Assembly (NCBI GenBank): GCA_034722055.1
Contig: JAYENL010000182.1
Location: forward strand, 1-31,812
Length of the DNA stretch: 31,812 nt
From: Armatimonadota bacterium
GTDB lineage: Bacteria > Armatimonadota > Zipacnadia > Zipacnadales > UBA5352
Direction of reading: 5' to 3'
Shown here: piece after piece, positions 5,212 to 30,307 of the stretch
How positions within the stretch are numbered: position 1 is the first letter of the stretch
Layout: each line of letters starts with the position of its first letter
Program-made: the position numbers and the translations under genes
Notes under the pieces: model-generated
The model's database searches: none
The model's input: the letters and a program-made list of their open reading frames with translations, nothing else
What the model was told of the DNA's origin: nothing

Positions 5212-5250
5212 GGGGTGAGGTGCGGGCTGCGAGCTACGAGCTTACGACTA

Positions 5251-5711
5251 ACGGCGTCAACGGCGGGCGGCGTAGGCACACCGCCCTCCGTACGGCAAAG
5301 GCACGGCCACCGGCCCTGTTGCAGGACGCCAACCTGTGCCGCGGCTGCCGTTGCCGTCTGTCGTCCGTGGCACGGGCACTCCTGCCCGTGCGCCGTCGTT
5401 GTCGTATGTCGCTGCCGTCACGCCGTACGGAGCGGCGGGCTGCCCAGCCCGCCGTCGTTGCCGTGTGCCGTTGCAGCCCTGCCCCCGAGACGACGGGTCG
5501 GGCCTTGCGTCCGCGTCGCGGAGGAACGGCGGGCCGGACAGTGGTCCGGCCCCTCCACACGACGAGGCAAAGACCACGGCCAACGGCGTCAACGGCGGGG
5601 GGCGTAGGCACACCGCCCTCCGTACGGCAATGGCACGGCACGCAGCGGTGATGGCAAGGCGTCGGCCTGGAAGCGGCCCAACGCCGTGCGGGCGAGGGCG
5701 CCCGCACCCCA
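5251..5711. repeat. BIME-like mosaic of at least 6 REP-like palindromes with an internal ~57-bp direct repeat
   Basis: Palindromes at ~5266-5291(-), 5367-5390(+), 5428-5454(+), 5531-5558(-), 5598-5623(-) and 5688-5711(-). 5251-5307 is nearly identical to 5583-5639. Confidence 0.85.
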
Positions 5712-8970: not shown

Positions 8971-9174
8971 TGGGGGGGCCGCTCCGCGCGTTCAACGCGC
9001 AGCGTTGACGCGAGGAGTGAGGCGCTGCGTGCAGCGCCGAAGGTTCCACCCCGGCCCGGCACGTAGCTCTACCCATGACTAAACGGCGCGCAGGCGGGGG
9101 CGCCTGCGCTACTTAACGGGTGGGCCGGGGTGGAACCTCCGAGGTGGCTCCATTCGCTCGCGGCGGCCCCTCCA
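8971..9174. repeat. Inverted pair of branched REP-like elements (A 8971-9057 +, B 9122-9174 -) with a GTAG REP between them (9088-9112 -)
   Basis: Shared ends TGG(A/G)GGGGCCG and GGTTCCACCCCGGCCC. The middle element is GTA-GCGCAGGCG-CCCC-CGCCTGCGC. Confidence 0.9.
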
Positions 9175-9248
9175 CACAACAGCACCCATCGAACCAGTTG
9201 GCGTTCGTCACCGCCTCCAGTATCTGGGCAAATCATATCTGTGAGCCA

Positions 9249-11315
9249 TCAGCGCTCGCGCTGCGCGATGTTGTCCTCGATGTACCAGTCAATCTCGCTC
9301 CACTCCCGGCTGCCGTCGGCGACCTCACGAAGCTGCGCGGCCAGCAGGCCGAGATACTCGTGCAGCACCGACATGTCGCGCATGTAGGAGGGCACCAGGT
9401 AGTGCGGCTTGTTGCCCTCGATGGTGGCCATGGCAGCGGCGACGGATTCCAGCGCCTCATCGACCTCCTCAGCCAGCGTCAGTGCATCCACGTGGCCCTC
9501 AGCGCGGCCGTGGGCGGCCTCGAAGGCCCTGGACATGACGCGGAAGGCGTAGCCGTGGCAGGCCAGGCGCTCGGCCTCGACCGCCATGTTCACACACAGC
9601 GCGTCCGAGCGGCCGTCGAGCAGCAGGCGCGCGCGATTGCCGGCCTCCTCCAGGAAGCGGAGGTCATCGGCCCTGTCGCCAAGCTCCTGCAGCGGCTCCA
9701 GGGGGTACTCGCGCGGCCAGGGCTTGTTGGGGCGCTCGTAGGTGTAGGTGTAGTACCACAGGAGCCCGAAGGCGGACGTCTCTGCGGCGCGGTCGAGCCA
9801 GCGCCGGGCCTCCAGGACATCGCCATCGCCCCTCACCTCCGCCCACTTTTGCTCGAAGAGGTGGATGGGGCCCGCGCCGCGCTGGTTCCACGAGTACTCC
9901 GCGAGGGCGTCGAACTCCAGGCCCCAGGCCTCATCGAAGACCGAGTAGGAGGCTGCGCCCTCCGCCCGGTCGGCCTGCGCCCGCTGCAGCATCTTGTCAA
10001 CGTTGCGCTTGCGCGGATCCCAGCGCGACCAGTTGTAGTAGCAGGTCATGGGCTTGACCCAACTGCGCACGCCGAAGCCCATCTTGGGATCGGCCTGGGG
10101 GTTGATGCTCTCGGTGCTGTACCACCACCAGTCGATGATGACGTGGTCGATGAGGCCCTCCTCGCGCAGGCGGTCCACGAAGGCCTCATCCCAGGCCTCC
10201 ATGTGGCGGGTGAACTGGTCGTTGTACATGATCACGTTCTCCACGCCTGCGGAGACGAGATGCTTCGCGAGTGTGATGGCCCAGTCCTGGAACATCTCCT
10301 CCATCGGCCTCTGACTGCACTGTGGGCAGCGGCAGAACTTCGTCCCCACCTCGTCGAGCTGGATGTGGAAGCTGTGCACGTCATGGGGCCTGAGGTAGGT
10401 CTCGTAGATGTGCTGATACCATCCGGTCACGAACTCGACGACGTCGGGGTTGCTGAGGCAGTAGCCGTAGCCCTGCGGCTGGCCATTCTCGTCCTTCGCC
10501 GCGAACTCCGGGATGATGCGAGGGATCAGCGTGTTGTGGCCCAGGCTGTTGACGTAAGGGATGACCTCCACGCCGCGCTGCTGTCCGTAGGCAACGATGT
10601 CCCCGAGGAAGTCCTGCTCGAAGATCCGGGGCAGGTAAGTGATCTGTTTCTCCTCACCATCGGTGGGTGAGTACCAGCGGATCGTCCACTCCCGTTTCAG
10701 CTCCGGATGATCCGGGACCGGGACATTGATCCACTCGGTGATCCGGCCGTCATACTGCACGCACCAGCAGCCATAGAGGCCGATGCCCAGCTTGTTGAGC
10801 TTCCGCTCGGCGAGGTAGTCGATGACGTGCTGCCAGTCCCCGAGCTCCATGAGATCCGGGCCCCACTTGTCCTCGACGAAGACCCCGCGCGTCCGCAGCA
10901 TCGGCCAGTCCACGATCAGCGCCGCGGGGACGCTGCCATGGGCCGGAATGCGGTTGAGGACCTCGTTGAGCGTTCTCAGGCCCCACCGGGCGCCGCGCTC
11001 GCTTCGCGCCACCAGCTCGGCGCCGTCGGGGAGGATGCGCAGCTCGTAGGCCTCATCCAGGGCGTGCTCCGGGATCTCGGGGCGCGCGAAGTCGGGCTCA
11101 ACTGCTACGCTCACCTCGTAGTCGATGGCGCCAAGCTCGGCGGCGATCAGATCGGCATGGCTGCCCTCGCCCGGCTCGCTGCCCCTGGGCACCTCGAGCT
11201 GCGCAGGCCTCTGCACCGCCTGGCTATGCAGCTCGACATGCTGGGGCTCAGGGATGATCTGGGGGAAACGCTGTGCTGCATCCGCGCTCGCCGCTCTCAG
11301 CTCTTCACGAGACAT
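9249..11315 (-). CDS. GH20-like beta-N-acetylhexosaminidase, cytoplasmic
   Basis: ATG 11315 after GGAGAGAGGG. IIPEPQ/EAYELRI GH20b domain, IVDWPMLRTRG, EVIPYVNSLGH and catalytic HIQLDE. Confidence 0.85.
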   Translation of the reverse strand: MSREELRAASADAAQRFPQIIPEPQHVELHSQAVQRPAQLEVPRGSEPGEGSHADLIAAELGAIDYEVSVAVEPDFARPEIPEHALDEAYELRILPDGAELVARSERGARWGLRTLNEVLNRIPAHGSVPAALIVDWPMLRTRGVFVEDKWGPDLMELGDWQHVIDYLAERKLNKLGIGLYGCWCVQYDGRITEWINVPVPDHPELKREWTIRWYSPTDGEEKQITYLPRIFEQDFLGDIVAYGQQRGVEVIPYVNSLGHNTLIPRIIPEFAAKDENGQPQGYGYCLSNPDVVEFVTGWYQHIYETYLRPHDVHSFHIQLDEVGTKFCRCPQCSQRPMEEMFQDWAITLAKHLVSAGVENVIMYNDQFTRHMEAWDEAFVDRLREEGLIDHVIIDWWWYSTESINPQADPKMGFGVRSWVKPMTCYYNWSRWDPRKRNVDKMLQRAQADRAEGAASYSVFDEAWGLEFDALAEYSWNQRGAGPIHLFEQKWAEVRGDGDVLEARRWLDRAAETSAFGLLWYYTYTYERPNKPWPREYPLEPLQELGDRADDLRFLEEAGNRARLLLDGRSDALCVNMAVEAERLACHGYAFRVMSRAFEAAHGRAEGHVDALTLAEEVDEALESVAAAMATIEGNKPHYLVPSYMRDMSVLHEYLGLLAAQLREVADGSREWSEIDWYIEDNIAQRER

Positions 11316-11511
11316 GTCAGTACCCTCTCTCCATCGGTGCATCCGCGCCGCACCCGGCGGCCGGGTGACCGCCCGCCGGTGCGCGATGCTCATCTGTGAT
11401 CTGCGTCAGGCATTCGCCTCGCCAGCGCCATTCCAGCGAGGAGTCGCTCCCACCCCGGTTCGTCAGACGCGCGCCGTCACCTGCCGCGAGCGCGTATCAA
11501 TTGACTGGCCC

Positions 11512-11565
11512 AGGGATTCAGTGGCGCTTCGCGCCACAAGCCGGCGAGGGCGCCGGCTTCCCAGG
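11512..11565 (-). repeat. Two-hairpin REP-like element, copy 1
   Basis: Minus strand TGGG-AAGCCGGCG-CCCT-CGCCGGCTT-GTGGCGC-GAA-GCGCCAC. 53/54 identical to 27552-27605. Confidence 0.9.
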
Positions 11566-11685
11566 ATGGGATGTAGGCCAGGGGCACAAGTTTCCCAGAG
11601 CGAGATAGGTGCGAGAAGGTCCCGTGAGCGTGACCAACGCAATGGCCTGCAACGCGCCGCCACATCGTCATCGGGAGGGGCGGAA

Positions 11686-13143
11686 ATGCCAGCAGCCGAC
11701 GCCGGGAAGCCGCAGTACGAGCACATCGTGCACCCCACGATGGAGGAGATGGAGGACGGGCTGCGGGAGTGGGCGGCGCAGCGCCCCAATGCCCTGAGAG
11801 TCGAGGTGGCGGGGCGGTCGCCGGAGGGCCTGCCGGTGCTGCTGTGCAGGATCACGGACGCCGGCGTCCCTGATGAGGACAAGCAGGTGGCGCTGATCAC
11901 GACCTGCCACGCCGGCCGCGAGCTCAATACCGCTACGGGCGCGCTGCGCCTCATCAAGTGGCTGATCTCGGATGATCCTGCGGCCGCTGAGATTCGCCGG
12001 CGGCAGATCGTCCTGGTCATGCCGGTCTGCGACCCGGAGGGCTTCGAGAGGCATCAGATCGGCAACAGCCTCGGTCACAGCCCCTACGGCGCCTGGACGC
12101 TCGATGGGGTGCGCGAGCCCGAGAAGAGCCCCGAGGCGGTTGCCATCAAGGGCGTCATCGACGAGCACATGCCGGAGGTCCACTGTGACATGCACGGGGT
12201 CTGGTATGGCGAGCAGACCATGTGGGAGAGCACGGGCATCTCCTGGGCCAGCGGCCTGTGCCGGCCTTACGTGCAGGAGTTCACGCGGCTGATCGACCGC
12301 CGGGCCGAGGAGGAGGGCTTTCTGATCACGCGCGGGGAACAGGACGCCGGCCAGGTGCGGGCCACGGCCCCGGTCGAGGGCGGCGAGCATCACTTCTACC
12401 TGCAGAAGGCCGGCGTGAACGACTGCGTCTACAGCTACCGGCAGTATCACGCCCTGGCCTTCACGCTGGAGGCGGGCTTCGAGGAGAGCATCATCGCACG
12501 CATCCGGGCGATGCTGGAGCTGGGGCACCACAGGTGGCGGGGCGAGCCCCACCACGGCTATCCGGTCAACCAGGTGGGCTGCTGGACCTCCACGGCGATC
12601 GCCGCCTGGGGCACGACGGCGATCGAACGGCGGCGCAGCCGCGTGGAGCTGTGGCGGAAGCTGGAGCAGCTCCGCTTCGGCTGCGGCCACCCGGAGCCGC
12701 GTGGCACGGTTATGGCCTTCTGTGCGACGAACGCGCGAGGGGCATCATATCTGGAGCCCGAGGAGATTGGCGACATCCTCCACGGGCTGGAGGACGTCGG
12801 GGGCTTCGACCTGTCCGCCCTCCGGGAGTTCAACCAGCGCACGCCGACGGAGAGGGTCCTGCCTGCAGGCGCCGGCAATGCCGGCGAGCCCATCCAGCAT
12901 GGCCTCGCCATCCGGCTGCTGATCCCGCACCGGGAGTCCCGGATTCGGCACCTGGCGCTGGATGGACGCCCTCTGGCGCTCTCACGCACGAGGGGCTATC
13001 AGCTCTGGCGGCATCCGGGGACGATCGTGCAGGTGAACATCCCGCCGGGCGAGGTCGGCGACCTGCACATCGTTACCTGTGCCTATGAGGAGCACAGCGG
13101 CCGGCGCTCCGGCTTCCGTGCCGAGGATTGGCGGCTGGCGTGA
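11686..13143 (+). CDS. M14-family zinc carboxypeptidase-like protein
   Basis: GGGAGG RBS. GRSPEGLP, HAGRE, VCDPEG (NPDG-equivalent), DMHG and FTLE. Confidence 0.8.
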   Translation: MPAADAGKPQYEHIVHPTMEEMEDGLREWAAQRPNALRVEVAGRSPEGLPVLLCRITDAGVPDEDKQVALITTCHAGRELNTATGALRLIKWLISDDPAAAEIRRRQIVLVMPVCDPEGFERHQIGNSLGHSPYGAWTLDGVREPEKSPEAVAIKGVIDEHMPEVHCDMHGVWYGEQTMWESTGISWASGLCRPYVQEFTRLIDRRAEEEGFLITRGEQDAGQVRATAPVEGGEHHFYLQKAGVNDCVYSYRQYHALAFTLEAGFEESIIARIRAMLELGHHRWRGEPHHGYPVNQVGCWTSTAIAAWGTTAIERRRSRVELWRKLEQLRFGCGHPEPRGTVMAFCATNARGASYLEPEEIGDILHGLEDVGGFDLSALREFNQRTPTERVLPAGAGNAGEPIQHGLAIRLLIPHRESRIRHLALDGRPLALSRTRGYQLWRHPGTIVQVNIPPGEVGDLHIVTCAYEEHSGRRSGFRAEDWRLA

Positions 13144-13152
13144 GGGAACAGC

Positions 13153-13375
13153 AGGCCGGACGCTGGTCCGGCCTCTCCACGCCACCATGCGGTGGCGTAT
13201 AAAGACAGCAGGCCCGCCAGGACAGACCCTCCCCGCGCGATGGCTGTCGCGCAGGTGGACCTCGGCCATCCTCCGCCTCAGCGGCACGGGACGGGGCGCA
13301 GCCTGGTGTTTTCGGCTGGGGCGAGGGCGCTGGCAGCGCACACACGCATCTGGCGCGCGGGCGCCCTCGCCCGCG
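13153..13375. repeat. REP-like cluster between convergent genes
   Basis: GTGGAG-AGGCCGGAC-CAGC-GTCCGGCCT (13153-13180 -), GCGGGCG-CCCT-CGCCCGC (~13357-13374 +) and a degenerate inverted partner at ~13318-13345. Confidence 0.75.
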
Positions 13376-13387
13376 CTTTGCACGGCA

Positions 13388-14260
13388 TCATGTCCCCGCG
13401 AACTGCTCATACAGCTCCAGCGGGCGCTGCATGGCGTCATCGAGCTCGGTGAGCGCCAGGCGGACGTGGGCGGTGCGCTCGTCGCCGGGCAGCAGGTCAT
13501 CGCCAAACAGCGACAGATACAGCGGGTTCTGGACCGCGAAGGGATCATCCGGGTTGTCGCTGGCGTAGCCGCTGACCACGGCGAAGCACTCCTCCGGCCG
13601 GCTCATCAGCACCGCCGCCACGCTGGTCTCGGGATCGACCTGCATGCAGATGGGCAGCTCGTAGAAGCGCTGCGGATTCCACTGGTACATGGCCCACAGG
13701 CCCGTCCAGCGGCCGTCAACGGGGCGTTTGGAGCAGTGCCAGTCGCGGGGGAAGACCAGCCCCGTTCCTACGTAGACGTCGTTGACCTCCGTGGCGACCC
13801 ACTGCGGCTGGTCGGGCGGATCGGCGTAGGGCGAGCCCTGCAGGTAGACGTGCGGGTTCATGGGCGGGTCGAAGTAGTTGGAGAGGAATAGCTCGTAGGC
13901 CTCGTAGGCCCACTCTGACTGCACGGTAACGGTGAGGTCGATGACCGCGCCACCGACGATCTCGTAGACCGCGGTCACCGCAGCGCGGTGATCGTCGTTG
14001 GCGGGCCAGTGCACCGTGAGGCTCTCGCCCTGGGCCTGCACCTCCCGCTCGTACTCGCGCACCGTCCCCATGCACTGGTTGGTCGAGAACAGCAGGAACA
14101 GGTTCAGCACATCGTAGTCGGGATGCACCACATCCACGCCGGTGGCCTTGTGCGTGAGGGTCTTGATGCCGTGACGGCCGCCCTCCGGCTCCAGCATGCC
14201 CTCCAGCTCATCGGTCTCGAAGCTCCACCATCCAGTCTCCGCGTCATGCTCGAACGGCAT
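13388..14260 (-). CDS. Hypothetical protein (beta-rich, possibly galactose-mutarotase-like)
   Basis: GGAGGGAGG RBS before ATG 14260. Strong coding bias. Directly follows the oxidoreductase. Confidence 0.8.
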   Translation of the reverse strand: MPFEHDAETGWWSFETDELEGMLEPEGGRHGIKTLTHKATGVDVVHPDYDVLNLFLLFSTNQCMGTVREYEREVQAQGESLTVHWPANDDHRAAVTAVYEIVGGAVIDLTVTVQSEWAYEAYELFLSNYFDPPMNPHVYLQGSPYADPPDQPQWVATEVNDVYVGTGLVFPRDWHCSKRPVDGRWTGLWAMYQWNPQRFYELPICMQVDPETSVAAVLMSRPEECFAVVSGYASDNPDDPFAVQNPLYLSLFGDDLLPGDERTAHVRLALTELDDAMQRPLELYEQFAGT

Positions 14261-14280
14261 TGTGCGCCCTCCCTCCAATG

Positions 14281-15471
14281 TCAGTCCCACATACCCAGCT
14301 CGAAACGAACGCCGCCCTGCGGGAACGGCACATCGACCAGGGACTCGGGGTCCTCCCAGTCGCCGTAGGTCCGGCGATAGGCCTCCTCGATGTCACGCTC
14401 CAGATCGGTCGGCTCCCCCAGCGGCAGGTCCAGCCATCCGCCGCCCCGACGGTGGCTCTCGCGGATGGCGAAGAGCACTTCGATGTCCCGGCGGGCGTTG
14501 CCAGGGCCGTAGGCCGGGTCGCTGCCGTCGGTAATGGCAGCGTGGAAGCCGTTCAGCAGGTCCATGCGCGCCACCTCATCACTGCTGTCGGCGCGCCACT
14601 CGCGGTGGGGATTCTCCAGGACCACCGGCGGATCAGTGTCCACGCGCACGTGATCGAAGACTCTCTCGCCCTCGACCTCGATGCTCTCGGAGACGAAGTC
14701 GAACTCCAGGAAGTCCGAGGTGCTGCCGATGAACAGGCTCTCACCGAAGAGCTGGCCGCGCGTGCCCTCCACATCCCACCGCCGGGACATGCGCGCCCGG
14801 GGCGGGCTCTCGAAGATGCACATCACGTCGGAGTCGAACTCGAAGACGCCCAGGTCCCAGCGATCGCGGCTGAGGGTGCGGCCGGTGAAGTGCTCGAACC
14901 TGGGCACCCGGACCTCGCCGGTGACGCCCAGCACACGCTGGACCTCGCCCGGCACCAGCATGCGGATGCCATTGATCCCGTGGTAGTCGGCCTTGTTGGT
15001 GTAGTAGAGCCGGGCGTGCTGCGGCTGGCCGATGCAGCGCTCGTCGATGAGGAGCCGCTTGAGCTGTTCCTCGGCCCACAGCCACACCTGCTCGGCGACC
15101 TCCAGCACGATGCCGGCCTCGCGTGCGGTCCGGACCATCCAGTCGGCGATGGTGGTGATGGGCGCGATGGGGATCTCGGTGATGACGTGCACGCCGCGCG
15201 CCGCGCAGACGCCCAGCGTCATGGGGTTGGCGTCAGGCGGTGCAGCACCCAGCACCGCATCCGGCTCCGCGCCGTCCAGCAGCTCCAGCAGCGTGCGGTA
15301 CCCCTCCACTCCCCAGCGCCTCTGCGACGCGAGGCGCTTCTCCTCATTCACCTCGCAGAACCCGCAGAACTCGTAGAGCTCGCTGTGTCGGGTGAGCTTA
15401 TGCAGCGTCTGCATCCACGACTGCCCTCGGCCGGTACCTGCTCCGACCATTCCGATGCGCAGTCGGCTCAT
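14281..15471 (-). CDS. Gfo/Idh/MocA-family oxidoreductase
   Basis: GGGAGG RBS. LRIGMVGAG Rossmann start, HVITEIPIA (EKP-equivalent), VAEQ and YHG. Confidence 0.9.
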   Translation of the reverse strand: MSRLRIGMVGAGTGRGQSWMQTLHKLTRHSELYEFCGFCEVNEEKRLASQRRWGVEGYRTLLELLDGAEPDAVLGAAPPDANPMTLGVCAARGVHVITEIPIAPITTIADWMVRTAREAGIVLEVAEQVWLWAEEQLKRLLIDERCIGQPQHARLYYTNKADYHGINGIRMLVPGEVQRVLGVTGEVRVPRFEHFTGRTLSRDRWDLGVFEFDSDVMCIFESPPRARMSRRWDVEGTRGQLFGESLFIGSTSDFLEFDFVSESIEVEGERVFDHVRVDTDPPVVLENPHREWRADSSDEVARMDLLNGFHAAITDGSDPAYGPGNARRDIEVLFAIRESHRRGGGWLDLPLGEPTDLERDIEEAYRRTYGDWEDPESLVDVPFPQGGVRFELGMWD

Positions 15472-15599
15472 TGTCGCTTCCTCCCTGTCGGTGAGTCGGG
15501 CCACCCGTGCTATGGGCGGCACCGGCTCTCATCGATCTAACGCTGACTGGCAGAAGCTCGCGTCCTCTGCAGCGTCACGGTGCTGCGTCTGCTCCAACA

Positions 15600-15851
15600 T
15601 GGAGGGGCCGCCGCGAGCGAAGCGAGCGGTGTGAGGTCGCGAGCAGAGCGAGGGACCTCACAGGTTCCACCCCGGCCCGCTGACCGAGCCTTCGGCCCGG
15701 ACACACGCTACCACTCGAGCGCCTCTTCCCACGGCCACAGCCCGACCCGCCTCCCAGTCTATTGCTCAGTGCTTGGGCCGGGGTGGAACCCTCGGCCTGT
15801 GCGCCCTGCTCACAGGCCTCACCGGGCGCTACGCGCCCGGCGGCCCCTCCA
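15600..15851. repeat. Inverted pair of branched REP-like elements (C 15600-15678 +, D 15775-15851 -)
   Basis: Same fixed ends as A/B, with two different internal hairpin arms in each copy. Confidence 0.9.
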
Positions 15852-15953
15852 CCTGAAGGCTGGCCCTCACCAGGACACCCAAGCCTGCTGACTGCACTGG
15901 TTCGCGACATCCCAAGACTCCCGCAAGCAAGGACTGGACGATGCCCTGCCGCG

Positions 15954-16790
15954 CTACTCAAGCGGCAGCCCGAAAAGCTGCTTCGCGTTGCGGTACAGGA
16001 TGTTGCGACGGTCCTCGTCGGTCATGTAGGCTGAGAGGATGCAGCCGATCCCGTAGTGGGGGTCGAACCAGGGGCTGTCGGTGCCGAACAGGATCTTGCG
16101 GCTGCCGGCGTGCTCCACCATGATCTCCAGCGCCCCGCGCACTGAGTAGGCGGCGGTCAGCTCCAGGTAGACATGCTCGTGGTCACGCGCCACCTTCGCG
16201 GACTCCTCCCAGTCCCCATAGCCGGCGTGGCCCATCAGCAGCGGGATGTCGGGGAACTGTTCGGCAACCGTGGCGACCTCCCGGTAGCTGGACATGCCCT
16301 CGCCCTGCCAGGTGTGCGTGAGGATGGGCACGGAGCGCTCGTTTGCGTACTCGAAGGCGGGGCGGTAGCGATCATCGGTGAGCGGGACGTCGTGCCCGTT
16401 GGGATGCAGCTTGAAGCCCACGAAGGCCGGCACGCCCGGGACCTGCCCCGTGGCCTGCTGATTGCTCTCGAAGTCGTCCAGCTCCGCCTGCAGGCGCTCG
16501 GGGTAGTTGGGATTGAGCGCCCACCAGCCGCGGAAGCGGCCGGGGTGCTGGGCCACCAGGTCCGCCATCTCGCGGTTGCCCCGGGTGGTGTCCACCAGGG
16601 CGGCGTGGGCCGACATCAGCAGCCAGCGCACGCCGCAGCGGTCCATCGTCTCCAGCACGTCGTCGGGGCGCCATCGGGGGAAGTAGATGGCCTGGTAGGG
16701 GCCGAAGTGCCCGTGCGTGTCGATGACAGGGCAGTCCCCCACCCGCCCGTGCTCCACGAACTCCCGCGTAAGCCTGCCCTCGCCGATCAC
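15954..16790 (-). CDS. Amidohydrolase_2-family TIM-barrel protein, metal ligands intact
   Basis: IDTHGH, GFKLHP, LTHT, MGHAG and LFGTDSP. GTG start overlaps the upstream stop (GTGA). Confidence 0.9.
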   Translation of the reverse strand: MIGEGRLTREFVEHGRVGDCPVIDTHGHFGPYQAIYFPRWRPDDVLETMDRCGVRWLLMSAHAALVDTTRGNREMADLVAQHPGRFRGWWALNPNYPERLQAELDDFESNQQATGQVPGVPAFVGFKLHPNGHDVPLTDDRYRPAFEYANERSVPILTHTWQGEGMSSYREVATVAEQFPDIPLLMGHAGYGDWEESAKVARDHEHVYLELTAAYSVRGALEIMVEHAGSRKILFGTDSPWFDPHYGIGCILSAYMTDEDRRNILYRNAKQLFGLPLE

Positions 16791-17548
16791 AGGCGCACCT
16801 CCTCCAGCATCCTGCGCAGGTTGCCCCCCGCGATCAGCTCCCGGTCCTCATCCGAGATGCGGGCGCGCAGGAGGGTCAGGATCGGCCCGCCCATGGGCGT
16901 CTCCGGGAAGTTGGTGCCGAACAGCAGCCGCCGGGAGCCGTAGCTGCGGCAGAGGTCCTCGATCCCGCCATCCAGCTCGTAGCGTGAGGTGTCCACCATG
17001 AAGTTGGGGTAGCGTTGCATCAGCGGCCGGAAAAGGCGGTCCTCGCCCCAGCTTCCATGGGCCACGATGACCAGATGAAGCTGGGGGAAGTCGGCCAGCA
17101 CCTGGTGGGCGAGGCGGTAGGTGTCGAGGTTGCCGGGCATCTCGCGCCGATGCACAAAGAGCGGGATGCCGCGGCTCTGCATCTCCTCCAGCAGCTCGCC
17201 CATGACGCTGGCGTTGAGCAGGTAGCGATGCTTCTCCGGGTAGGCCCACAATGCCCGGACTCCCTCCTGGCGCATTGCCTCCAGGAAGTCATCGACATCG
17301 CCGACCTCCCGCGTCTGCGGAGGCAGCATCCCCCACGCCGGCTCCAGCCGGGGATCGCCGCGCGCGCCCTCCGCGGTCAGCCGATTGCCCACCTCGGGGC
17401 TCTCCTCGAAGATGGCCGCGCTGCGCACCAGCGCGCGGGCGATCCCGGCGCGCTCCATCTCGCCCAGCAGCGCCTCGGGCGTCTCCGCGCCAGCCGTCGG
17501 CGGGGACTTGGGCACACCGTACCAGCAGTTGCAGTCAAACAGCTCCAT
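16787..17548 (-). CDS. Amidohydrolase_2-family protein with degenerate metal site
   Basis: ATG 17548 after GGAG. FDCNC in place of DxHxH, LLFGTNFP in place of FGTD, and C-terminal IAGGNLRRML. Confidence 0.85.
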   Translation of the reverse strand: MELFDCNCWYGVPKSPPTAGAETPEALLGEMERAGIARALVRSAAIFEESPEVGNRLTAEGARGDPRLEPAWGMLPPQTREVGDVDDFLEAMRQEGVRALWAYPEKHRYLLNASVMGELLEEMQSRGIPLFVHRREMPGNLDTYRLAHQVLADFPQLHLVIVAHGSWGEDRLFRPLMQRYPNFMVDTSRYELDGGIEDLCRSYGSRRLLFGTNFPETPMGGPILTLLRARISDEDRELIAGGNLRRMLEEVRL

Positions 17549-17737
17549 GACCCGAACTCCATGCGGCGTCATCTCATGCGTGGCTGCAGTTTCCCCGCGA
17601 GCGGTCTCCGTCCTCCCGACTGAGGGGACATTCAAGGCGTGCGCCGATTGTGGGCCGTGCCGTACGGAGGTCGGGCCTTCCCACGCCCGAGGCAGACCGA
17701 AAGGCCCGCATTCCTTGTCGTTGCTCGCTCCCAGGAG

Positions 17738-17782
17738 GTGGCGCTTGCGCGCCACAAGCCGGCGAGGGCGCCAGCTTGCCAG
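17738..17782 (-). repeat. Two-hairpin REP-like element, diverged copy 3 (further GGAG palindromes at ~17665-17690 and ~17814-17860)
   Basis: GTGGCGCTTGCGCGCCACAAGCCGGCGAGGGCGCCAGCTTGCCAG aligns with 11521-11564 with one insertion and two substitutions. Confidence 0.8.
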
Positions 17783-18009
17783 ACATGGAAGGGGCTGGCG
17801 AAGGCGAAGGACTCGGAGGGACGAAGTGCGCCGCCGAGGGCGCCTTGCGCGCCCCGCCCGGATGCGATAGACTCTCGCGACATGCGAAATGCGGGAGGAC
17901 TGTTCGCGCGAGTGTGGAAGTCGTACGCAGCAGCACAGGGACGGTCCCGCCATCGACTATCGGCGCCCACACGGGCGCGAAGAGCCCGTGAGACATCGGG
18001 CTGGCGATC

Positions 18010-20670: not shown

Positions 20671-20709
20671 CGACCGCTCCGTGTCCGCTGCGGAGGATGC
20701 GACGCGCTC

Positions 20710-22071
20710 ATGAGACTGCTTGAGAGATTCACCTGGTTGCACGTGCTGATCATCAGCCTGATCGGCTCGGCGCTGGTCGGGGCCATCGTGCACTTCACCC
20801 GCCCTGCCGCCTTCACAGCCAGGAGCTCTGTGCTGCTGAATGACCGCCCGGACATCGTGGCCGGTATCGTGGGCGACGCGTCCACACCCGGCTCCGGGCC
20901 CTCACTGGCGCGGCTTCAGGCCATCCTGGTCAGCCGCGCCCTGAGGGAGCGGGTGGCTGAGAAGGTGAAGCTGGCCGAGACCCTCAACGCTCGGAGGGTC
21001 GATGCTGTCGAGATGCTGCTTCACAACACCACGGTGAAGGCCATCGGCGAGGACGGCCTGACGGTGACCGTGACGACCTACGGCTACGCCCGCCCGCGCC
21101 TGGCGGTGCTGGGCACTCCGGTGGGCTTCGAGCGAGCCCGGCAGCTCAGCGCCGAGATCGCCAACACCTACGTCAGCGAGCTGCGGGAGTATCTGCGCGA
21201 CGTCACTCTGCAGCGGGCCACGGGCACCACGCGCTTCCTCCGGACGCGCCTGGACGATCTGCAGCACGAGGTGAGCGAGACCGAGGACCGCCTGCAGACG
21301 CTCCGAGCGCAGTACGAGCTGCTGGATCCAGACAGCGAGGCCAGCAGGCTCGGGGAGCGCATCCGCGCGCTGGAGCAGGCGCGCGCGGACGCGGCGGCGG
21401 AGGCGGACGCCTCCGCCAGCTCCATGGAGGAGGCCCAGAGCCAGCTCGCAGAGGCCGATGCGCGTCGCGTCGCCTCCGCCGTGGAGGCGCGGAACCCGGT
21501 GATCTCCAGGCTGGAGGAGGAGCTGACGCAGCATCGCATCGACCTGGCCGCCGAGCTGGCCCGCGGCAAGACCTGCCAGAACCGCGACGTGGTGCAGATT
21601 CAGAGCGCCATGGACAGCATCGAGGCCCAGCTTGCGAGCCTGGAGGACACCGTGGTGCAGCAGCTCAGCGAGCAGCCCAACCCGCTGCACGACGATGCCG
21701 CGAAGCGGGTGGTGGACCTGCGGGTTCAGCTCGCCGGAGCGCGAGCGAGGAAGGCCGAGACCGAGGCGCTTCTGGAGGCGGCGCGGAGCCAGATGGCGGA
21801 GCTGCCCGCGGTGGCCCGCGAGTACATGCAGATCCAGCGGCAGCGCCAGGTGCAGTCCCAGGAGCTCACATCGGTGGAGCAGGCCCTGTGGAGGGCGGAG
21901 ATGGAGGAGGAGCGGGCGAGGACCGCCGAGCGGTTCTCCGTTCTCGACGAGGCCGTGCCGCCCACCGAACGCGCCGGACCGGCCACCGCCATGAGTACCG
22001 GCATCGCCTTCGTGGCGCTGATGCTGCTACAGGGCCTGTTCATCATCGATCGCCGCTGGTTCGGCGGGTAG
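20710..22071 (+). CDS. Polysaccharide co-polymerase (GumC/Wzz-like), no kinase domain
   Basis: N- and C-terminal TM helices, long coiled coil, AEIANTYV, NPV and FSVLDEAVPP. Adjacent to the OPX gene. Confidence 0.85.
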   Translation: MRLLERFTWLHVLIISLIGSALVGAIVHFTRPAAFTARSSVLLNDRPDIVAGIVGDASTPGSGPSLARLQAILVSRALRERVAEKVKLAETLNARRVDAVEMLLHNTTVKAIGEDGLTVTVTTYGYARPRLAVLGTPVGFERARQLSAEIANTYVSELREYLRDVTLQRATGTTRFLRTRLDDLQHEVSETEDRLQTLRAQYELLDPDSEASRLGERIRALEQARADAAAEADASASSMEEAQSQLAEADARRVASAVEARNPVISRLEEELTQHRIDLAAELARGKTCQNRDVVQIQSAMDSIEAQLASLEDTVVQQLSEQPNPLHDDAAKRVVDLRVQLAGARARKAETEALLEAARSQMAELPAVAREYMQIQRQRQVQSQELTSVEQALWRAEMEEERARTAERFSVLDEAVPPTERAGPATAMSTGIAFVALMLLQGLFIIDRRWFGG

Positions 22072-22131
22072 TCCCCCGTAGTAGAAGTCCGCGCAAGACC
22101 CCATGCCGCAGTAAGACGCTTGCGCCCAGCA

Positions 22132-22210
22132 TGGAGGGGCCGCCGCGAGCGCAGCGAGCGGTGTGAGGTCGCAAGCGGAGCGAGTGACCTCACAGGTTCC
22201 ACCCCGGCCC
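22132..22210 (+). repeat. Branched REP-like element E
   Basis: 79 nt, differing from copy C at 4 positions. A degenerate inverted foot lies at ~22247-22258. Confidence 0.9.
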
Positions 22211-22469
22211 AGGACAGGGAACATCACTGAGCTGGCGTGCAACCGTCGGCCCCTCCACCAGAATGCTCCACACCACAACCATGCCCGACTGGCCTTCTCA
22301 TCAACTCCCGAGGACCTCTGCAAGTAAGCACTGACAACCGGAGGCGGCGCGGGGAGGCCCCCGCTCCGGACGGCGGCAAAGGCTCACGGACCGGCGGAAT
22401 CGCACGTTGCTACCCCACGCACGCGTCTGTGTTATCCCCTCAGCCGTCGGCGCACCCCGTCAGCTCCGC

Positions 22470-22847
22470 CTACCCGCTCTTGATGTCGATGACGGGCGAG
22501 CCATCAAAGGCGTCCAGACCCTCCACGGTGAGGCGCAGACCCTCGCGCGAGATCAGCCGTACGCGCGTCATGCCGATGGGGTTGGGGCGCATCGGAGAGT
22601 GCGCCGCGAAGACCCCGTGCAGCGGGATGTCGCGATTCCCCCTCGGATGCACCTGCACGATCTCGCGATCCTCCGGCTTGAGCCCGTGCATCCAGTACAG
22701 CACCCAGAGGTGCTGCTTCGTCTCAACGCGAAGCAGGCACTCCTCGTGCTCGGGACGGACCTCAATGACCTGAGGGAGCGGATTGCCCTCCGCATCCTGC
22801 GGCGGTCCCCTCACGATTCCGACGGGCTCGATCTCAAGCGGCAACAT
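22470..22847 (-). CDS. trmO: TrmO/TsaA-like SAM-binding protein, short single-domain form
   Basis: IEPVGIV, LWVLYWMH, GVFAAHSPMRPNPIG and GLDAFDGSPVIDIK. Confidence 0.85.
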   Translation of the reverse strand: MLPLEIEPVGIVRGPPQDAEGNPLPQVIEVRPEHEECLLRVETKQHLWVLYWMHGLKPEDREIVQVHPRGNRDIPLHGVFAAHSPMRPNPIGMTRVRLISREGLRLTVEGLDAFDGSPVIDIKSG

Positions 22848-22908
22848 GCTATGCCGTCCTGTGCGAACGACGGATTAAACCTAGCGCGCGACTCCCCCAC
22901 CGAGGCTG

Positions 22909-23158
22909 GTAGCTCGTAGCCCGCACTCGTTGCCCCCATGGGGCGCCCGCCTCCCATGGTACGCACAACGGCAGGCCGGACGGTGGTCCGGCCCCTCCAT
23001 ACGGCACACGGCAACGGCGGATACGCGGTGCGCGCCCCGGCATCTGTGCCGTCCGGAGCGGCGGCGTGCCTACGCCGCCGGCTATTGCCATTCGCCCCCC
23101 GCGCCGGCCACGCTCCCACCAACGACAGCGCGGGCTCGGCAGCCCGCCGCCCGTCCGG
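22909..23158. repeat. BIME-like REP mosaic
   Basis: TGGAG-GGGCCGGAC-CACC-GTCCGGCCT (22973-22999 -), CGGAG-CGGCGGCGT-GCCT-ACGCCGCCG (23054-23080 +), GCGGGCT-GCCG-AGCCC(GC) (~23129-23150 -) and TGGGAG feet. Same types as at 5.25-5.71 kb. Confidence 0.8.
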
Positions 23159-23173
23159 TCGCCCCGCCGCCGC

Positions 23174-24451
23174 TCAGTCGTAAAGCTGCGGCCGGCGCTC
23201 GGCCCAGGTCGAGTCCCGGAAGGTGGAGCCGCGGAAGGTGCGCAGCTCCTCCGAGATGTCGCACTCGGCCACAATCACGCGCTGGCGACCGTCGTTGTAG
23301 GCCAGGATGTCGCCGCTGGGCGAGATGATCGCCGACCCCTCCGCGCGGTTGCGGGCGATGACCATCCAGATGTGATTCTCGATGGCCCGGGCGCGCATGA
23401 TGACCTTCCAGCGATCCGGCGAGAAGCTCCCCGGAGCCCACTGCCACTGCACCGCGCGGTGATCGCCCATGATCGACAGCAGCATGACCTCAACGCCGCG
23501 AAGCGCCGGCACGCGCGTGGAGTCCAGCAGCGAGGAGTCCTTGCAGATGGTGCAGCCGACCCTCCCGATGGGCGTCTCGATGACCGGCAGCTCGTCGCCG
23601 GGGGTGACCCCGTCCCAGCCCTCGGTGATGGCCAGGTGGGTCTTGCGATAGGTCCCGATGATGTCGCCCTCAGGCCCGAAGATCACCATGGTGTTGAACA
23701 GCAGGTCGCCGTCGGCCTCCAGCATCGAGAAGGCGATCATCATACGATGCTCGTCGGCGATCTCGGCGAAGGCGTCCGTTTCCGGCCCCGGGATCTTTCG
23801 GGCCTTCTCAGCCTGCTCCCCGGGGACGCCCCAGGAGAGGATGACCTCGGGCATCAGCAGCAGGTCGGGCCTGAGTTCCGCGGCCTCTCGCGCCAGGTCG
23901 GTGAACAGCGCCACGTTGTCCTCCACGCTCTCCGGGTCCTGGGGCTGGGCGGAGGCCGCAGCGATGCGGTGGACGCGCCGGGCCGGGGCCTGGGCCGGCT
24001 CGACGGCGGGCGCCCAGAACTCCGCGCGGCCAGTGGCGGTCCAGCGCACGCCGAAGCGCAGCACGGCCCGCGTGGCATCATCGGGGCAGCGGAAGACGCG
24101 CTCGGCGCGGCCCTCCGGCGGCGGCTTGTGGATGAGCAGGTAGTCGTAGTCCACCCGCTCGTCCTCATCATCCACCCAGAACACGAAGATGGGCATGCCG
24201 TCCAGGACGCTGGCCATGCCCTCGGCACGGTAGCTGAGGCCCACGCGGTAGTGCTGACCGGCTTCGGCGGGAAAGACCACGTCCCAGCCCCCGAAGCAGC
24301 CGGGGCTGCCGGAGCTAGCGGCGACGAGCCGGTCCCCCTCGCGCGAGCACTCCGCCGCCAGGCCCTCCCGTGCGGCCCAGGTCCTCAGCGCCACCGGCTC
24401 CATGTCGCCGCCAGCCTCGATGTCCGCATCATACGTGTCAATGACGATCAT
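23174..24451 (-). CDS. Carbon-nitrogen hydrolase (nitrilase superfamily) with an extra N-terminal domain
   Basis: AGGAG RBS, ATG 24451. Triad LLMPE, YRKTHL and TICKD, plus RARAIEN. Confidence 0.9.
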   Translation of the reverse strand: MIVIDTYDADIEAGGDMEPVALRTWAAREGLAAECSREGDRLVAASSGSPGCFGGWDVVFPAEAGQHYRVGLSYRAEGMASVLDGMPIFVFWVDDEDERVDYDYLLIHKPPPEGRAERVFRCPDDATRAVLRFGVRWTATGRAEFWAPAVEPAQAPARRVHRIAAASAQPQDPESVEDNVALFTDLAREAAELRPDLLLMPEVILSWGVPGEQAEKARKIPGPETDAFAEIADEHRMMIAFSMLEADGDLLFNTMVIFGPEGDIIGTYRKTHLAITEGWDGVTPGDELPVIETPIGRVGCTICKDSSLLDSTRVPALRGVEVMLLSIMGDHRAVQWQWAPGSFSPDRWKVIMRARAIENHIWMVIARNRAEGSAIISPSGDILAYNDGRQRVIVAECDISEELRTFRGSTFRDSTWAERRPQLYD

Positions 24452-24693
24452 GGCGATCTCTCCTCTGCGATGTGAACAGCCGTCGCAGCCACTGCGCCAG
24501 AAGGGGGAGGTGCTCCAGGGAGCGCGGTGTGCGCGCGGCATCGGGCGTGGCGCTCACTCCTGGCGATGACGGTGGCGGCCTCGGTCGCAGGGCAGTGTTC
24601 CCTGCCCCGTCGCCCGGACCTCCGTGTCGGCAGGTTCGCGGCCGAGGTCGGCGAAGGTAGCGTCACACCCAGCTCTCGAGTCAGGAGATGCGC

Positions 24694-26196
24694 ATGGAGA
24701 GGACTGCCCGGCGGCGAAGGGTCCGCATCGAGCACCTGGTCTGGGCCGTGATGCTCTACTGCGGCGTGGTGGCGGCCATGTGGCCGAAGCGGACCTACGA
24801 CATCTGGTGGCACCTGGCCACGGGCAAGTACATCGTGCAGACCCGCACCATCCCCGACGAGGACCCCTTCACCTACACCCGCACCGGCAGGCCCTGGATC
24901 ACGCATGAGTGGGGCTGGGAGGTGCCCATGTACCTGCTGTATGCGCGCTGGGGCCACGCCGGGCTGATGGCGCTGCGGGCGATGGTGGCGCTGGTGGCGA
25001 GCGGGCTGCTGGCGTGGCTGCTGCTGCGGCGGGGTGCGGCTCCGCTGGCGGCGATGGCCGCGGGCGCGCTGGCCATCTTCGCCGCCAGGCCGCTGCTCAA
25101 TGACCGCCCGCAGATGGCGACCACAGCACTGTTCGTCGCCATGCTGTGCGTGATCGAGCACTCGCGGCAGGGCCGGCATCGCTGGCTGCTGGCGGCCCCG
25201 CTGCTGATGATCCCCTGGGTCAACCTGCACGGCGGGTTCATCTTCGGACCCGCCCTTCTGGTCCTCTACGCGCTCTGCACGCTGCCGCAGTGGTATCGCC
25301 AGAGGCGGGAAGGGCGGCCTCTGCAGCCCGCTCCCGCCCTGCTGATCGGCGTCATCGTGGCCTCCCTGCCGGCCTGCCTGGTGAACCCCCACGGCGTGGC
25401 CGGGGCCGCCTATCCGCTGCAGTACGTCATCGGCGGGCACGCCTGGCACAAGACCATCATCACCGAGTACGAGTCCCCGGACTTCTCGGAGCCGATCTTC
25501 CTCTTCCTGGGGCTGCTGATCGTGGCGGCGGCGGTGGCCTTCGCTGCCTCCCGGCGGCGGGCCGGGCTCTGGGACGTGGCGCTGGTTGGGGTCTTCCTGT
25601 TTCTGACCCTCAAGTGGCAGCGCAACACGGCGCTGTTCGCATTCGCAGTTGCGCCTGTCGTGGCCCTGCAGCTCTCCGAGCTGCTGGAGTGGCGGGGGCT
25701 GGCGGAGCTGGGCAGGGGCGAGAGCCAGCAGCCGCCGGCGGGGCTCTACGTTGCCATCATGGCGATTCTGTCGATTCTGGCGATTGCGGCCGCGCCCAAT
25801 GCGCTCAGCCGCGTGGAGAGGGCCTTCGCCGCGGACATGCCCGGGGAGTGCGTGGATCACATCCAGCGCACCGGCCTGCAGGGTCGCATGTTCAACACCT
25901 ACCGCTGGGGAGGCTACCTCATCTGGCGCCTGTGGCCGCAGCAGCGCGTGTTCGTGGACGGGCGCGCGGACGTCATGGGGCAGGAGCTGATTGAGGACTA
26001 CTGCACCGCGGTCAAGCTCCGGGAGGGCTGGCGGGACGTGGTGGAGGCCTACGATTTTGACTGGGCGCTGCTGGCAGCGGACTCGCCGCTGTGCCGGGGA
26101 CTGGAGCTGCTGCCGGAGTGGAGCCTGGAGTGTGAGAGCGAGACCTCCAGGCTCTATGTGAGGTCGAGCGCGCCAGAGACGCCCACTGAGCAGTGA
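24694..26196 (+). CDS. Polytopic membrane protein, putative GT-C-fold glycosyltransferase
   Basis: AGGAG-N6-ATG. DIWWHLATG, DPF, HEW, RPQ, WVNLHGGF, WGGYL and FVDGRAD, with about 11-12 hydrophobic segments. Confidence 0.7.
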   Translation: MERTARRRRVRIEHLVWAVMLYCGVVAAMWPKRTYDIWWHLATGKYIVQTRTIPDEDPFTYTRTGRPWITHEWGWEVPMYLLYARWGHAGLMALRAMVALVASGLLAWLLLRRGAAPLAAMAAGALAIFAARPLLNDRPQMATTALFVAMLCVIEHSRQGRHRWLLAAPLLMIPWVNLHGGFIFGPALLVLYALCTLPQWYRQRREGRPLQPAPALLIGVIVASLPACLVNPHGVAGAAYPLQYVIGGHAWHKTIITEYESPDFSEPIFLFLGLLIVAAAVAFAASRRRAGLWDVALVGVFLFLTLKWQRNTALFAFAVAPVVALQLSELLEWRGLAELGRGESQQPPAGLYVAIMAILSILAIAAAPNALSRVERAFAADMPGECVDHIQRTGLQGRMFNTYRWGGYLIWRLWPQQRVFVDGRADVMGQELIEDYCTAVKLREGWRDVVEAYDFDWALLAADSPLCRGLELLPEWSLECESETSRLYVRSSAPETPTEQ

Positions 26197-26223
26197 CCGG
26201 GCGCGCGGACTGGGGGATGCGGC

Positions 26224-27414
26224 GTGCTTCTTCCCATCCCGATAGGCACTGAGCGCCGTCTTCAGCGGAGGGCCTGGGTCACGTGGGGCCTCATCGCGAC
26301 GAACTGCTTCGTGTACTTCTTCCTGCAGGGCGGGCCGGAGGGGTCCAACTTCCCCCTCGTCTTCCAGCGCCTGCAGTGGTGGATGCCGGTCACGCACATG
26401 TTCGCCCACGGCGGTCTGCTGCACCTGCTGGGCAACATGCTGGTGCTGTGGGTCTTCGGCCCGCACGCCGAGGATGCGCTGGGGCGGGGGAAGTTCCTGG
26501 TGCTCTACTTCAGCGCGGGCTTCGCCTCGGCCGCACTTCACCTCCTGGCCTCCGCTGTGCTCTATCCGGAGAACCTGGCCATCGGCATGCTGGGCGCGTC
26601 CGGGGCCGTCATGGGCGTGGTGGCGCTGTTCGTGCTGCGCTTTCACGGGGTGCGGGTGCGCTTCTTCTTCTGGTGGATTCTCCCCTACATCTTCCACGTC
26701 CGGGCCCTGTGGATGGGCATCGCCTATCTGGCATGGGACCTGGGCTGGGCGCTGCTCGAGATCGGATCGGCGGGCGGGGCGGGAGTGGCGCACTGGGCGC
26801 ACGCGGGCGGCTTCCTGGCCGGCGCCGTCTGGGCCTGGGCTCTACGGCTGCCCGAGGAGGGCACCCACGAGATCAAGCATGACGAGGTGCGCGGGCACAT
26901 CGCCGCCGGCGCCTGGCGGGCGGCGGCGAAGCTGCTGGAGGAGCGCATCGAGGCCCGCCCCGGAGACGCCTCGCTGCACGCCGAGGCGGCCGCCTGCTAC
27001 GAGATGCTGCGCGACGAGCGGGACCAGGCGGCGGCGCACTGGAACCAGCACCTGAGGCTCCTGCTGCTACACGGGCACACCGAGGAGGCCCTGAAGCGCT
27101 TCCAGTTGCTGACGGAGAACTTCCGCCCGGGGGACTTCGACCCGGCGGTGCTCATGAGGCTGGGCGCGGCGGCGGAGGGCCTGGGCGAGGACGAGCCGGC
27201 GGTGGCGGCGTGGATGGCGGCGGCGCAGGCCCACCCCGACAGCCCTCAGGCGGCGCCGGCGGCCCTGCGCGCCGCCCGCGTCTTCGTCCGCCATGACAGC
27301 CCCAAGCGCGCCGCCGCCGTCCTGGAGCTGATACAGCGGCGCTGGCCCAGCAGCCAGGAGGCGCTCACCGCGACGAGTCTCCTCCGCGAGGTCTCGCACG
27401 GGCTGGAGCCCTGA
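26224..27414 (+). CDS. Rhomboid intramembrane serine protease with a C-terminal TPR-like domain
   Basis: HMFAHGGLLHLLGNM, GASG (catalytic Ser), AHWAHAGG (catalytic His) and a helical Ala-rich C-terminus. Confidence 0.92.
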   Translation: MLLPIPIGTERRLQRRAWVTWGLIATNCFVYFFLQGGPEGSNFPLVFQRLQWWMPVTHMFAHGGLLHLLGNMLVLWVFGPHAEDALGRGKFLVLYFSAGFASAALHLLASAVLYPENLAIGMLGASGAVMGVVALFVLRFHGVRVRFFFWWILPYIFHVRALWMGIAYLAWDLGWALLEIGSAGGAGVAHWAHAGGFLAGAVWAWALRLPEEGTHEIKHDEVRGHIAAGAWRAAAKLLEERIEARPGDASLHAEAAACYEMLRDERDQAAAHWNQHLRLLLLHGHTEEALKRFQLLTENFRPGDFDPAVLMRLGAAAEGLGEDEPAVAAWMAAAQAHPDSPQAAPAALRAARVFVRHDSPKRAAAVLELIQRRWPSSQEALTATSLLREVSHGLEP

Positions 27415-27441
27415 GCCCTCCAGAAACCGCGGCGTGCTGGA

Positions 27442-27533
27442 TGGAGGGGCCGCCGGGCGCGCAGCGCCCGGTGAGGGCCGTAAGCGCAGCGAACGGGCGG
27501 GACCGGAGGTCTCCTGAGGTTCCACCCCGGCCC
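27442..27533 (+). repeat. Branched REP-like element F (three arms)
   Basis: Fixed ends. Arms CCGGGCGC-GCA-GCGCCCGG, CCGT-AA-GC-GCA-GC-GA-ACGG and GACC-GGA-GGTC. Confidence 0.9.
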
Positions 27534-27551
27534 AACACCGTGAGGTGGTCA

Positions 27552-27605
27552 AGGGATCCAGTGGCGCTTCGCGCCACAAGCCGGCGAGGGCGCCGGCTTC
27601 CCAGG
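27552..27605 (-). repeat. Two-hairpin REP-like element, copy 2
   Basis: 53/54 identical to 11512-11565. Confidence 0.9.
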
Positions 27606-30171: not shown

Positions 30172-30307
30172 GTCGGGCTGGAAGCCCGACCTACGCGGTG
30201 GAGAAGCGGCGCGACCGGCGCTTGCCGTGCCGTTCGGAGGGGCCGGTCTCCGTCCCGGCCCGGTCGTTCGTCGTTCCGTTCGGAGGGGCACGACTACGCT
30301 CGCGCCC
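30172..30307. repeat. REP-like cluster
   Basis: GTAG-GTCGGGCT-TCC-AGCCCGAC (30172-30194 -), CGGAG-GGGCCGG-N8-CCGGCCC (30235-30261) and CGGAG-GGGCACGA-N6-TCGCGCCC (30281-30307). Confidence 0.8.

Follow-up and report, generated by a model that had tools for sequence, protein, structure and literature searches.

Two kinds of repeat bear on the DNA described here: repetitive extragenic palindromes (REPs), and TA-flanked MITEs (miniature transposable elements that end in inverted repeats) such as RUP, ERIC and NEMIS. In the REP/REPtron systems with TnpA-REP enzymes, which comprise groups 2 and 3 (subclasses 2.2 and 2.5) of the tyrosine transposases associated with REPs (RAYTs), both groups are described in the main text of PMC8266576 and PMC6006769 as having a foot of four nucleotides on the 5' side of a stem rich in G+C. 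The recognition of REPs by RAYTs and the way in which REPs spread are still called open questions in the text of PMC8266576. IS630, for its part, is described in PMC2170065 as duplicating TA. We examined a stretch of 31,812 nucleotides, called the window below, from an Armatimonadota bacterium (assembly GCA_034722055.1, contig JAYENL010000182.1, positions 1 to 31,812), in which a first-pass annotation made from the letters alone had noticed six copies of a branched, REP-like family. All six were confirmed in position, strand, ends and arms (Table 1), with copy B collapsed and the foot of copy A reading GGGG, not GGAG. Our computational analysis makes it probable that this is a REP family flanking a RAYT gene, whose units are predicted to fold on one strand into a four-way junction which the enzyme likely recognises and, in this genus, lie mostly in pairs inside IS630-type repeats that likely move each pair as a single unit.

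The source genome (G000) is a 6.14-Mb assembly of 68% G+C and 93% completeness, of which the window is contig C182. Orthologous sites were compared in a congener (G001, assembly 83% complete), and 17 genomes of the same family and 23 further genomes of the order were used for comparison. A foot-to-tail pattern search over the source genome returned 191 elements, of which 187 were kept, 170 of them distinct; elements shorter than 50 nt, longer than 130 nt, containing N or running through another element were excluded. Gene overlaps and orientations were counted against the predictions of our own codon-model script. Labels beginning with G, C and L are our own for genomes, contigs and loci.

Anatomy, predicted fold and strand signature

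All 187 elements are intergenic, none overlapping a predicted gene, and the exact 16-nt tail occurs 164 times in the 6.14 Mb compared with no occurrence of a reversed-pattern control, so the family is not a product of chance. Each unit consists of a GGAG foot, GGGCCG, an interior, the fixed 10-nt tail GGTTCCACCC and CGGCCC, giving a 6-bp basal stem; units are 63–125 nt long and the interior usually holds two variable hairpin arms. Each foot position agrees with GGAG in more than 98% of copies, a figure partly fixed by the search definition, and the foot is not the GT[AG]G that is canonical for REP/RAYT systems. Nor is the unit a single short or bulged hairpin of 20–65 nt: at least two arms are present in 163 of the 170 distinct copies of the source genome and in 69 of 73 distinct copies from relatives, and the interior folds into two arms in 141 of the 170 and 68 of the 73.

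The minimum-free-energy fold is four-way in 114 of the 170 distinct copies. A test that makes no use of energies splits 132 of the 170 into two directly abutting arms, with no linker between them; among shuffles the figure is 388 of 3400 (11%). The same linker-free split was found in 57 of the relatives' 73, against 15% of shuffles. The 10-nt tail is itself a mini-hairpin, with a compensatory change from GG..CC to GC..GC at L021 and L163. Basal stem, arm 1, arm 2 and tail would thus meet in a four-way junction; of the 3- to 5-way junctions proposed earlier, four-way is the usual predicted form. Covariation, which the first-pass annotation had suggested looking for, is present in the arm stems, whose bases vary widely while pairing is kept; at the base of arm 2, some copies have a tandem GA where others have the Watson-Crick equivalent. 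A pseudoknot between foot and tail loop (TGGA with TCCA) was considered and is not supported, given that the base at -2 shows no covariation with the loop and that T at -1 is equally common in plain REPs.

The arms are strongly linked to one another in about seven subfamilies, so swapping is only occasional. One swap was observed at an orthologous RAYT-adjacent copy, where G000 and G001 share arm 2 and differ in arm 1; the arms, first described as swappable, can thus be exchanged but not freely. Arms also expand: in one subfamily 10 of 17 copies contain a 47-nt double hairpin inside arm 1, and in another 12 of 61 have arm 2 enlarged by an additional hairpin. The 47-nt module (C36, C45, C76, C88 and others; C145, C281) was also observed within an unrelated repeat, and is therefore a nested mobile module. 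A second kind of module, GAGAC-hairpin-GTCTCC, was found 70 times in the source genome (copy F included), in arm loops, extra arms, spacers and other repeats.

GNA loops are stable in DNA, while tandem GA pairs are stable in both DNA and RNA. We found that 2x2 internal loops are GA/GA in 97 of 121 cases on the foot strand and in 1 of 108 on the opposite strand. When only the arms are counted, the foot strand of the source genome's copies has 174 occurrences of GCGNAGC and the opposite strand 6, and in relatives the figures are 38 and 3, with all four bases used at N. Raw GNA triloops are nearly even (136 versus 117), since a GGA loop appears when the tail is read from the opposite strand, so the bias that had been predicted for these loops appears in the arms and not in the raw count. 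Single copies between co-oriented genes were sense in 23 cases and antisense in 18. The GNA and GA bias thus tracks the foot strand irrespective of transcription, a pattern that selection on single-stranded DNA (ssDNA) would be expected to leave, and the one-strand folding signature claimed for the six window copies is borne out across the genome.

The probable partner RAYT and the proposed origin of the arms

Six PF01797 matches were found in the source genome. One of these genes, on contig C193 (L002/L015), has two family copies on each side, four in all. Its 171-aa product has the HLH motif and Y135 and scores 92.6 bits with NF047646 (cut-off 80); it falls below the IS200 model (NF033573, 31.3 bits, cut-off 55), and the gene flanked by family copies is not the adjacent IS200-type transposase that would mark IS200/IS605 ends. 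The best match in both sequence and fold was 4ER8, the TnpA-REP of E. coli, the AlphaFold model being modest (pLDDT 60), and the nearest named relatives are from Armatimonadota. Four of the other five PF01797 genes are each flanked by another GGAG REP type, plain 26-mers among them, and the sixth has no GGAG REP nearby. One RAYT-like gene, L006 (C324:43488-43712), lies below the NF047646 cut-off and has no GGAG REP close by, but a different abundant repeat just downstream. One-arm GGAG REP families, with 846 feet in all, likewise occur in this genome; their tandem GA pair is always equally far from the basal stem, and the RAYTs that they flank form a separate clade (L001, L003).

The tail is present in 12 of the 17 genomes of the family and in 1 of the 23 others of the order. 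We built a FastTree phylogeny of 118 RAYT-like rows, rows below 75 bits and duplicates having been removed. Since an automatic 'branched' label in the RAYT table missed L016 and over-called L001, L035 and L152, we relied instead on the tail label and on reading of the sequences. In one clade (SH 99) every RAYT, 10 of 10, has tail-bearing branched elements around it, as against 0 of the 108 other rows, and neighbouring RAYTs carry GGAG or GTAG REPs. The link to an HUH enzyme that the first-pass annotation had suspected is supported both by the four copies at C193 and by the way the tail tracks one clade. Its further suggestion, a substrate class unlike ordinary REPs, agrees with the predicted shape but not with the class: the family is a variant of REP/RAYT, showing the genomic marks of membership except for the GT[AG]G foot and the single-hairpin shape.

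An arm-less form of the family has no match in the source genome and two one-mismatch matches in 18 family genomes. In a sister family, with tail GTCGCCTGAC, both states can be observed. The plain 26-mer makes up 48 of 50 matches in G012; the same 26-mer, opened at nt 10/11 and nearly always by two arms, accounts by eye for every match in G013 (22 of 22), G017 (23 of 23), G007 (3 of 3) and G015 (2 of 2). Both forms occur in G016. L027, the RAYT next to the plain form, and L142, next to the branched one, are sister enzymes (SH 98). Similar openings are found with other tails at L028, L140 and L155. The coexistence of plain and opened forms supports insertion of arms at a fixed site, and what had been proposed as hairpin cassettes inserted into a simple REP is directly visible in this sister family.

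In the model that we favour, the family would descend from a plain 26-nt REP that took up two hairpins between nt 10 and 11. This position may tolerate insertion because the self-complementary tail could stack on the basal stem, rebuilding the plain-REP surface of foot, stem and loop that a RAYT would read; the idea fits the description in the text of PMC8266576 of group 3 RAYTs as readers of these three parts. The arms would then point away from the enzyme, and folding would be the sole demand on them, with tandem GA pairs and with GNA loops that are stable in DNA. In the manner of known RAYTs, the enzyme would take the foot as its guide and nick ssDNA close to the element.

The IS630-type shell, the pairs and the rival readings

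Empty orthologous sites, for which the first-pass annotation had advised looking, were found in the congener at A/B, C/D and E, and F is missing there as well; the sequence lacking, 320–400 nt, is far more than the REPs themselves. The flanks are common to copies for 60–87 nt upstream of the foot and start abruptly at a 28-nt motif, (C)TAGTG at its outer end. This outer motif lies upstream of 106 of 184 copies, at 61–63 or 82–86 nt depending on arm type (61–86 overall), and stands inverted at both ends of 23 units of 315–427 bp. The C/D unit, 15538-15936, matches the gap in G001. The motif also matches the termini of IS630 elements in five family genomes (at most 26 of 30 nt, L325; 24 of 30, L324), both ends of the IS630 elements L288 and L324 score 10.7–27.6 with it, and IS630-type ends wrap unrelated cargo in G005 and G002. 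A TA-like dinucleotide is found at both ends of units, identical at both in only 9 of 23, and the empty C/D site keeps one dinucleotide when counted by eye.

Given IS630-type ends on over half of the copies, much of the family's spread within the source genome is probably the work of a DDE transposase, and the REP pairs of this genus likely ride in an IS630-type MITE. These terminal repeats are a feature absent from the first-pass annotation. In the proposed mechanism an IS630 transposase acting in trans would copy the whole 265–430 bp shell into TA sites, which would help to raise copy number in the genus.

A family neighbour lies within 300 nt of 96 of the 187 copies, 45 tail-to-tail pairs were counted, and 24 copies are near contig edges or gaps. 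The partners differ in arm type in all 45 pairs, where random pairing would give 17% of the same type; because pairs spread as units, these heterodimers are not 45 independent events. Such pairing may serve to avoid long palindromes, the end-to-end hairpin of the C-D heterodimer (-81.6 kcal/mol) being much weaker than that of a homodimer control (-135.3).

Several side observations concern the shell. The TAG of the outer motif is the predicted stop codon of the upstream gene in 18 of 106 copies, so that insertions would land harmlessly at gene ends. CTAG is very rare in the source genome (596, versus 26994 for CATG and 12491 for GTAC), which would make preferred IS630 targets scarce. IS630-type shells of 237–256 bp hold other repeat families at L294, L304, L308 and L310 (G005) and at L295 (G002). 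A second terminal motif, CTATGCATTACsCACATCT, lies 60–105 nt upstream of the CCCGAGC and CTCCGAGC subfamilies in 23 of 187 copies (for example C36:11001, C88:4031 and C326; in relatives L223, L229, L234, L276 and L277), and may be another MITE end. Two IS630 transposase genes are split over two frames at an A-rich run (L288, C137:4413-5485; L289, C226:5631-6250), possibly as programmed frameshifts, and L289 is 300 nt from a shell. As other sources of the shell, IS5/ISL2 (PF13359) was sought with none found, and the one IS701 (PF13546) element found has ends that mismatch it. The two candidates in the source genome for an autonomous element between two shell ends each merely span one long gene. 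In viral contigs the outer motif had no match, and the five tail matches are taken as chance because none has a foot. No RNA run was among the sequencing runs listed. Four DNA runs of one study showed, among the joints listed, which cover contigs only, none that skips a whole site, which is uninformative either way.

A number of points weigh against the reading set out above. All folds of the family are predictions, and the predicted minimum of the C-D pair is the long end-to-end hairpin, not two junctions. The RAYT phylogeny comes from FastTree only, and counts of copies and genomes overstate independence, because both copies and genomes are kin. The empty sites in G001 allow gain in G000 or loss in G001 alike. 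The source genome has two IS630 matches at E<1e-8, and the complete one has ends that match the shell at only 15–18 of 30 nt, so the cognate transposase was not found there. Neither the outer motif nor the second motif is carried by 55 of the 187 copies, A, B and F included. A general role for the shell is further weakened by its outer motif being on only 3 of the relatives' 73 copies, all in G001, and by the RAYT locus on C193 having no shell. Finally, CTAG is palindromic, so the shell ends also fit cleavage between C and T by an HUH enzyme.

The rival that survives best, though we hold it unlikely, is that the family now spreads only as passive cargo of an IS630-type MITE, the RAYT link being historical and the arms being kept for RNA stability at gene 3' ends. 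The frequency of the IS630-type end, the identical ends around unrelated cargo and the stability of tandem GA pairs in RNA are all in keeping with it, as is an enrichment of copies between convergent genes (47 of 147 placed copies versus 234 of 2014 background regions). Yet few of the relatives' copies have the shell end, all of them in G001, while the elements occur in 12 of the 17 genomes of the host family, and the RAYT locus itself has no shell. The foot and tail are near invariant, partly by search definition, and the lack of sense bias among single copies, together with GNA loops that follow the foot strand with N left free, fits poorly with selection on a transcript.

Less probable still is that the RAYT alone moves the pair and its flanks by cutting between C and T, with the IS630-like ends as old captured sequence. 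Conservation does start at CTAG with the C at 68% and the T at 75%, RAYTs are described as cutting between these two bases in the text of PMC8266576, and the length of the empty sites fits both models. However, the two flank types, though different further in, end in one and the same 28-nt motif, and this motif matches IS630 element ends and wraps non-REP cargo elsewhere. Some units, moreover, have TA at both ends with a neighbour other than C (C106), which fits TA duplication. A structured non-coding RNA or terminator family unrelated to any transposase is very improbable and largely refuted: all copies are intergenic, favour gene 3' ends and have covarying arm stems, but the window gave no Rfam match at gathering score (a match which the first-pass annotation had named as a refutation; the C/D region had only a chance CRISPR-DR hit, E 1.9), there is no strand bias relative to genes, the sites are empty in the congener, and the tail is tied to one RAYT clade.

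A branched REP family recognised by its RAYT and largely carried in an IS630-type shell is therefore the reading that we retain as probable. We would extend it only tentatively, with somewhat more doubt than belief, to a general statement: that hairpin arms, inserted time and again at a single permissive site, can turn a RAYT substrate from a plain hairpin into a DNA junction that is obligatorily four-way, that the branched form is now the only one propagated by one RAYT clade, and that in one genus IS630 ends captured REP pairs into a two-enzyme (HUH and DDE) composite.

Window features and comparison with described systems

Features of the window are collected in Table 1. All five of the short elements of ~27 nt that the first-pass annotation counted as versions of the family are present, the one at 13153 being degenerate, but they are not arm-less members of it: they have other 10-nt tails, and their families flank other RAYT genes.

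Table 1. REPs and IS630-type terminal repeats of the window, with coordinates in window positions
Feature	Position	Strand	Remarks
Branched REP A, GGGG foot variant; arm 1 CTCC..GGAG, arm 2 GGCGC..GCGCC	8971..9057	+	Left half of tail-to-tail pair with B; site empty in G001; no IS630-type end detected
Collapsed branched REP B	9122..9174	-	Paired with A; spacer of 64 nt
Left IS630-type terminal repeat of 399-bp C/D shell	15538..15565	+	Starts at presumed TA target duplication; motif score 24.8; matches G001 empty-site edge
Branched REP C; arm 1 CCGC-GA-GC-GAA, arm 2 GAGGTC..GACCTC	15600..15678	+	Predicted four-way junction
Branched REP D; arm 1 CCGGGCGC, arm 2 GGCC..GGCC	15775..15851	-	Forms a heterodimer with C; spacer of 96 nt
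Right IS630-type terminal repeat of C/D shell	15909..15936	-	Motif score 14.8; matches G001 empty-site edge
Left IS630-type terminal repeat of E shell	22069..22096	+	TAG of this end doubles as predicted stop codon of the gene upstream; G001 alignment breaks here
Branched REP E, subfamily of C	22132..22210	+	
Remnant foot and half stem of E's decayed partner	22244..22257	-	
Right IS630-type terminal repeat of E shell (265-bp unit)	22306..22333	-	Motif score 22.2
Branched REP F, extra GAC..GTCTCC hairpin	27442..27533	+	Single copy; absent at orthologous G001 site, which has other sequence
Simple 26-nt GGAG REP, GACCAC tail type	5531..5556	-	Different family, flanks RAYT L004
Degenerate simple GGAG REP, GACCA type	13153..13178	-	
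Simple GGAG REP, GACCAC tail type	22973..22998	-	
Simple GGAG REP, GTCTCC tail type	30236..30261	+	Its family flanks RAYT L005
Simple GGAG REP, GTCTC type	31705..31730	+	Compensatory stem variant

Other repeats share the window. A third family of ~60 nt with two hairpins (11506-11565, 17724-17783 and 27546-27605) is partly absent at orthologous sites in G001, and its bins have high contig depth. Further repeat types share crowded intergenic regions at 22332-22374, 23048-23090, 5244-5307 and 5576-5639, and a GTAG-foot repeat is among the most abundant 14-mers of the source genome.

This lineage offers a natural mutational series of plain, one-arm and two-arm REPs with a common foot, each beside its own RAYT. 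One tail occurs in plain and branched form beside sister enzymes, and the series predicts which face of the DNA the enzyme reads. The IS630 shell suggests that a second transposase can drive REP copy number and leave empty sites, which calls for caution when the presence or absence of REPs is taken as RAYT activity. Junction-forming ssDNA substrates that tolerate cargo may also serve HUH tagging tools.

Neither a branched single REP nor an IS630 shell was found in the literature searched (including PMC6006769, PMC4690160, PMC12306157 and PMC3733652; figures, most supplements and subscription journals aside). The likeness to REP/REPtron is otherwise close as far as the text of PMC8266576 and PMC6006769 goes: there are hundreds of intergenic copies and several RAYT/REP sets per genome, each REP family having a single RAYT gene that its members flank (PMC6006769), and the family RAYT has the DHLH and WQ motifs and, at the E100 position, the D of subclass 2.5. 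The foot differs, GGAG here compared with GT[AG]G there, and GGAG is absent from the main text of PMC8266576 and PMC6006769. Their REPs are described as single, bulged or double-foot hairpins of 20–65 nt, whereas the present units measure 63–125 nt and have at least two arms and a separate tail hairpin.

The spaced inverted pairs, a RAYT enclosed by pairs, and presence or absence at orthologous sites all recall the REPINs and BIMEs described in the text of PMC3116915. Unlike these, the partners here differ in arm type in every tail-to-tail pair and about half of the copies are unpaired, and whereas the 'clover' of that paper is a fold of two REPs, each single REP is predicted to be branched here. 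The IS630-family MITEs, as far as their descriptions go, are resembled in the non-coding units of 265–430 bp and in the terminal inverted repeats of 25–30 nt, starting from TA and often CTAG, which match the ends of IS630 elements in the same family. They differ in that the cargo here is a RAYT-type REP pair and that the closely matching transposase is found in relatives only, not in the source genome. Comparable too are the GTAG repeats of PMC3733652, whose text describes self-complementary inserts in REP loops, enrichment at gene 3' ends, and REP dimers inside long inverted repeats in A. variabilis and H. neapolitanus, much as the pairs are enclosed here. Those inserts extend the hairpin at its loop, whereas here the arms enter the 5' strand of the stem and yield a predicted junction; and the enclosing repeats, which that text does not tie to IS630 (the term is absent from it), are in the present family of IS630 type.

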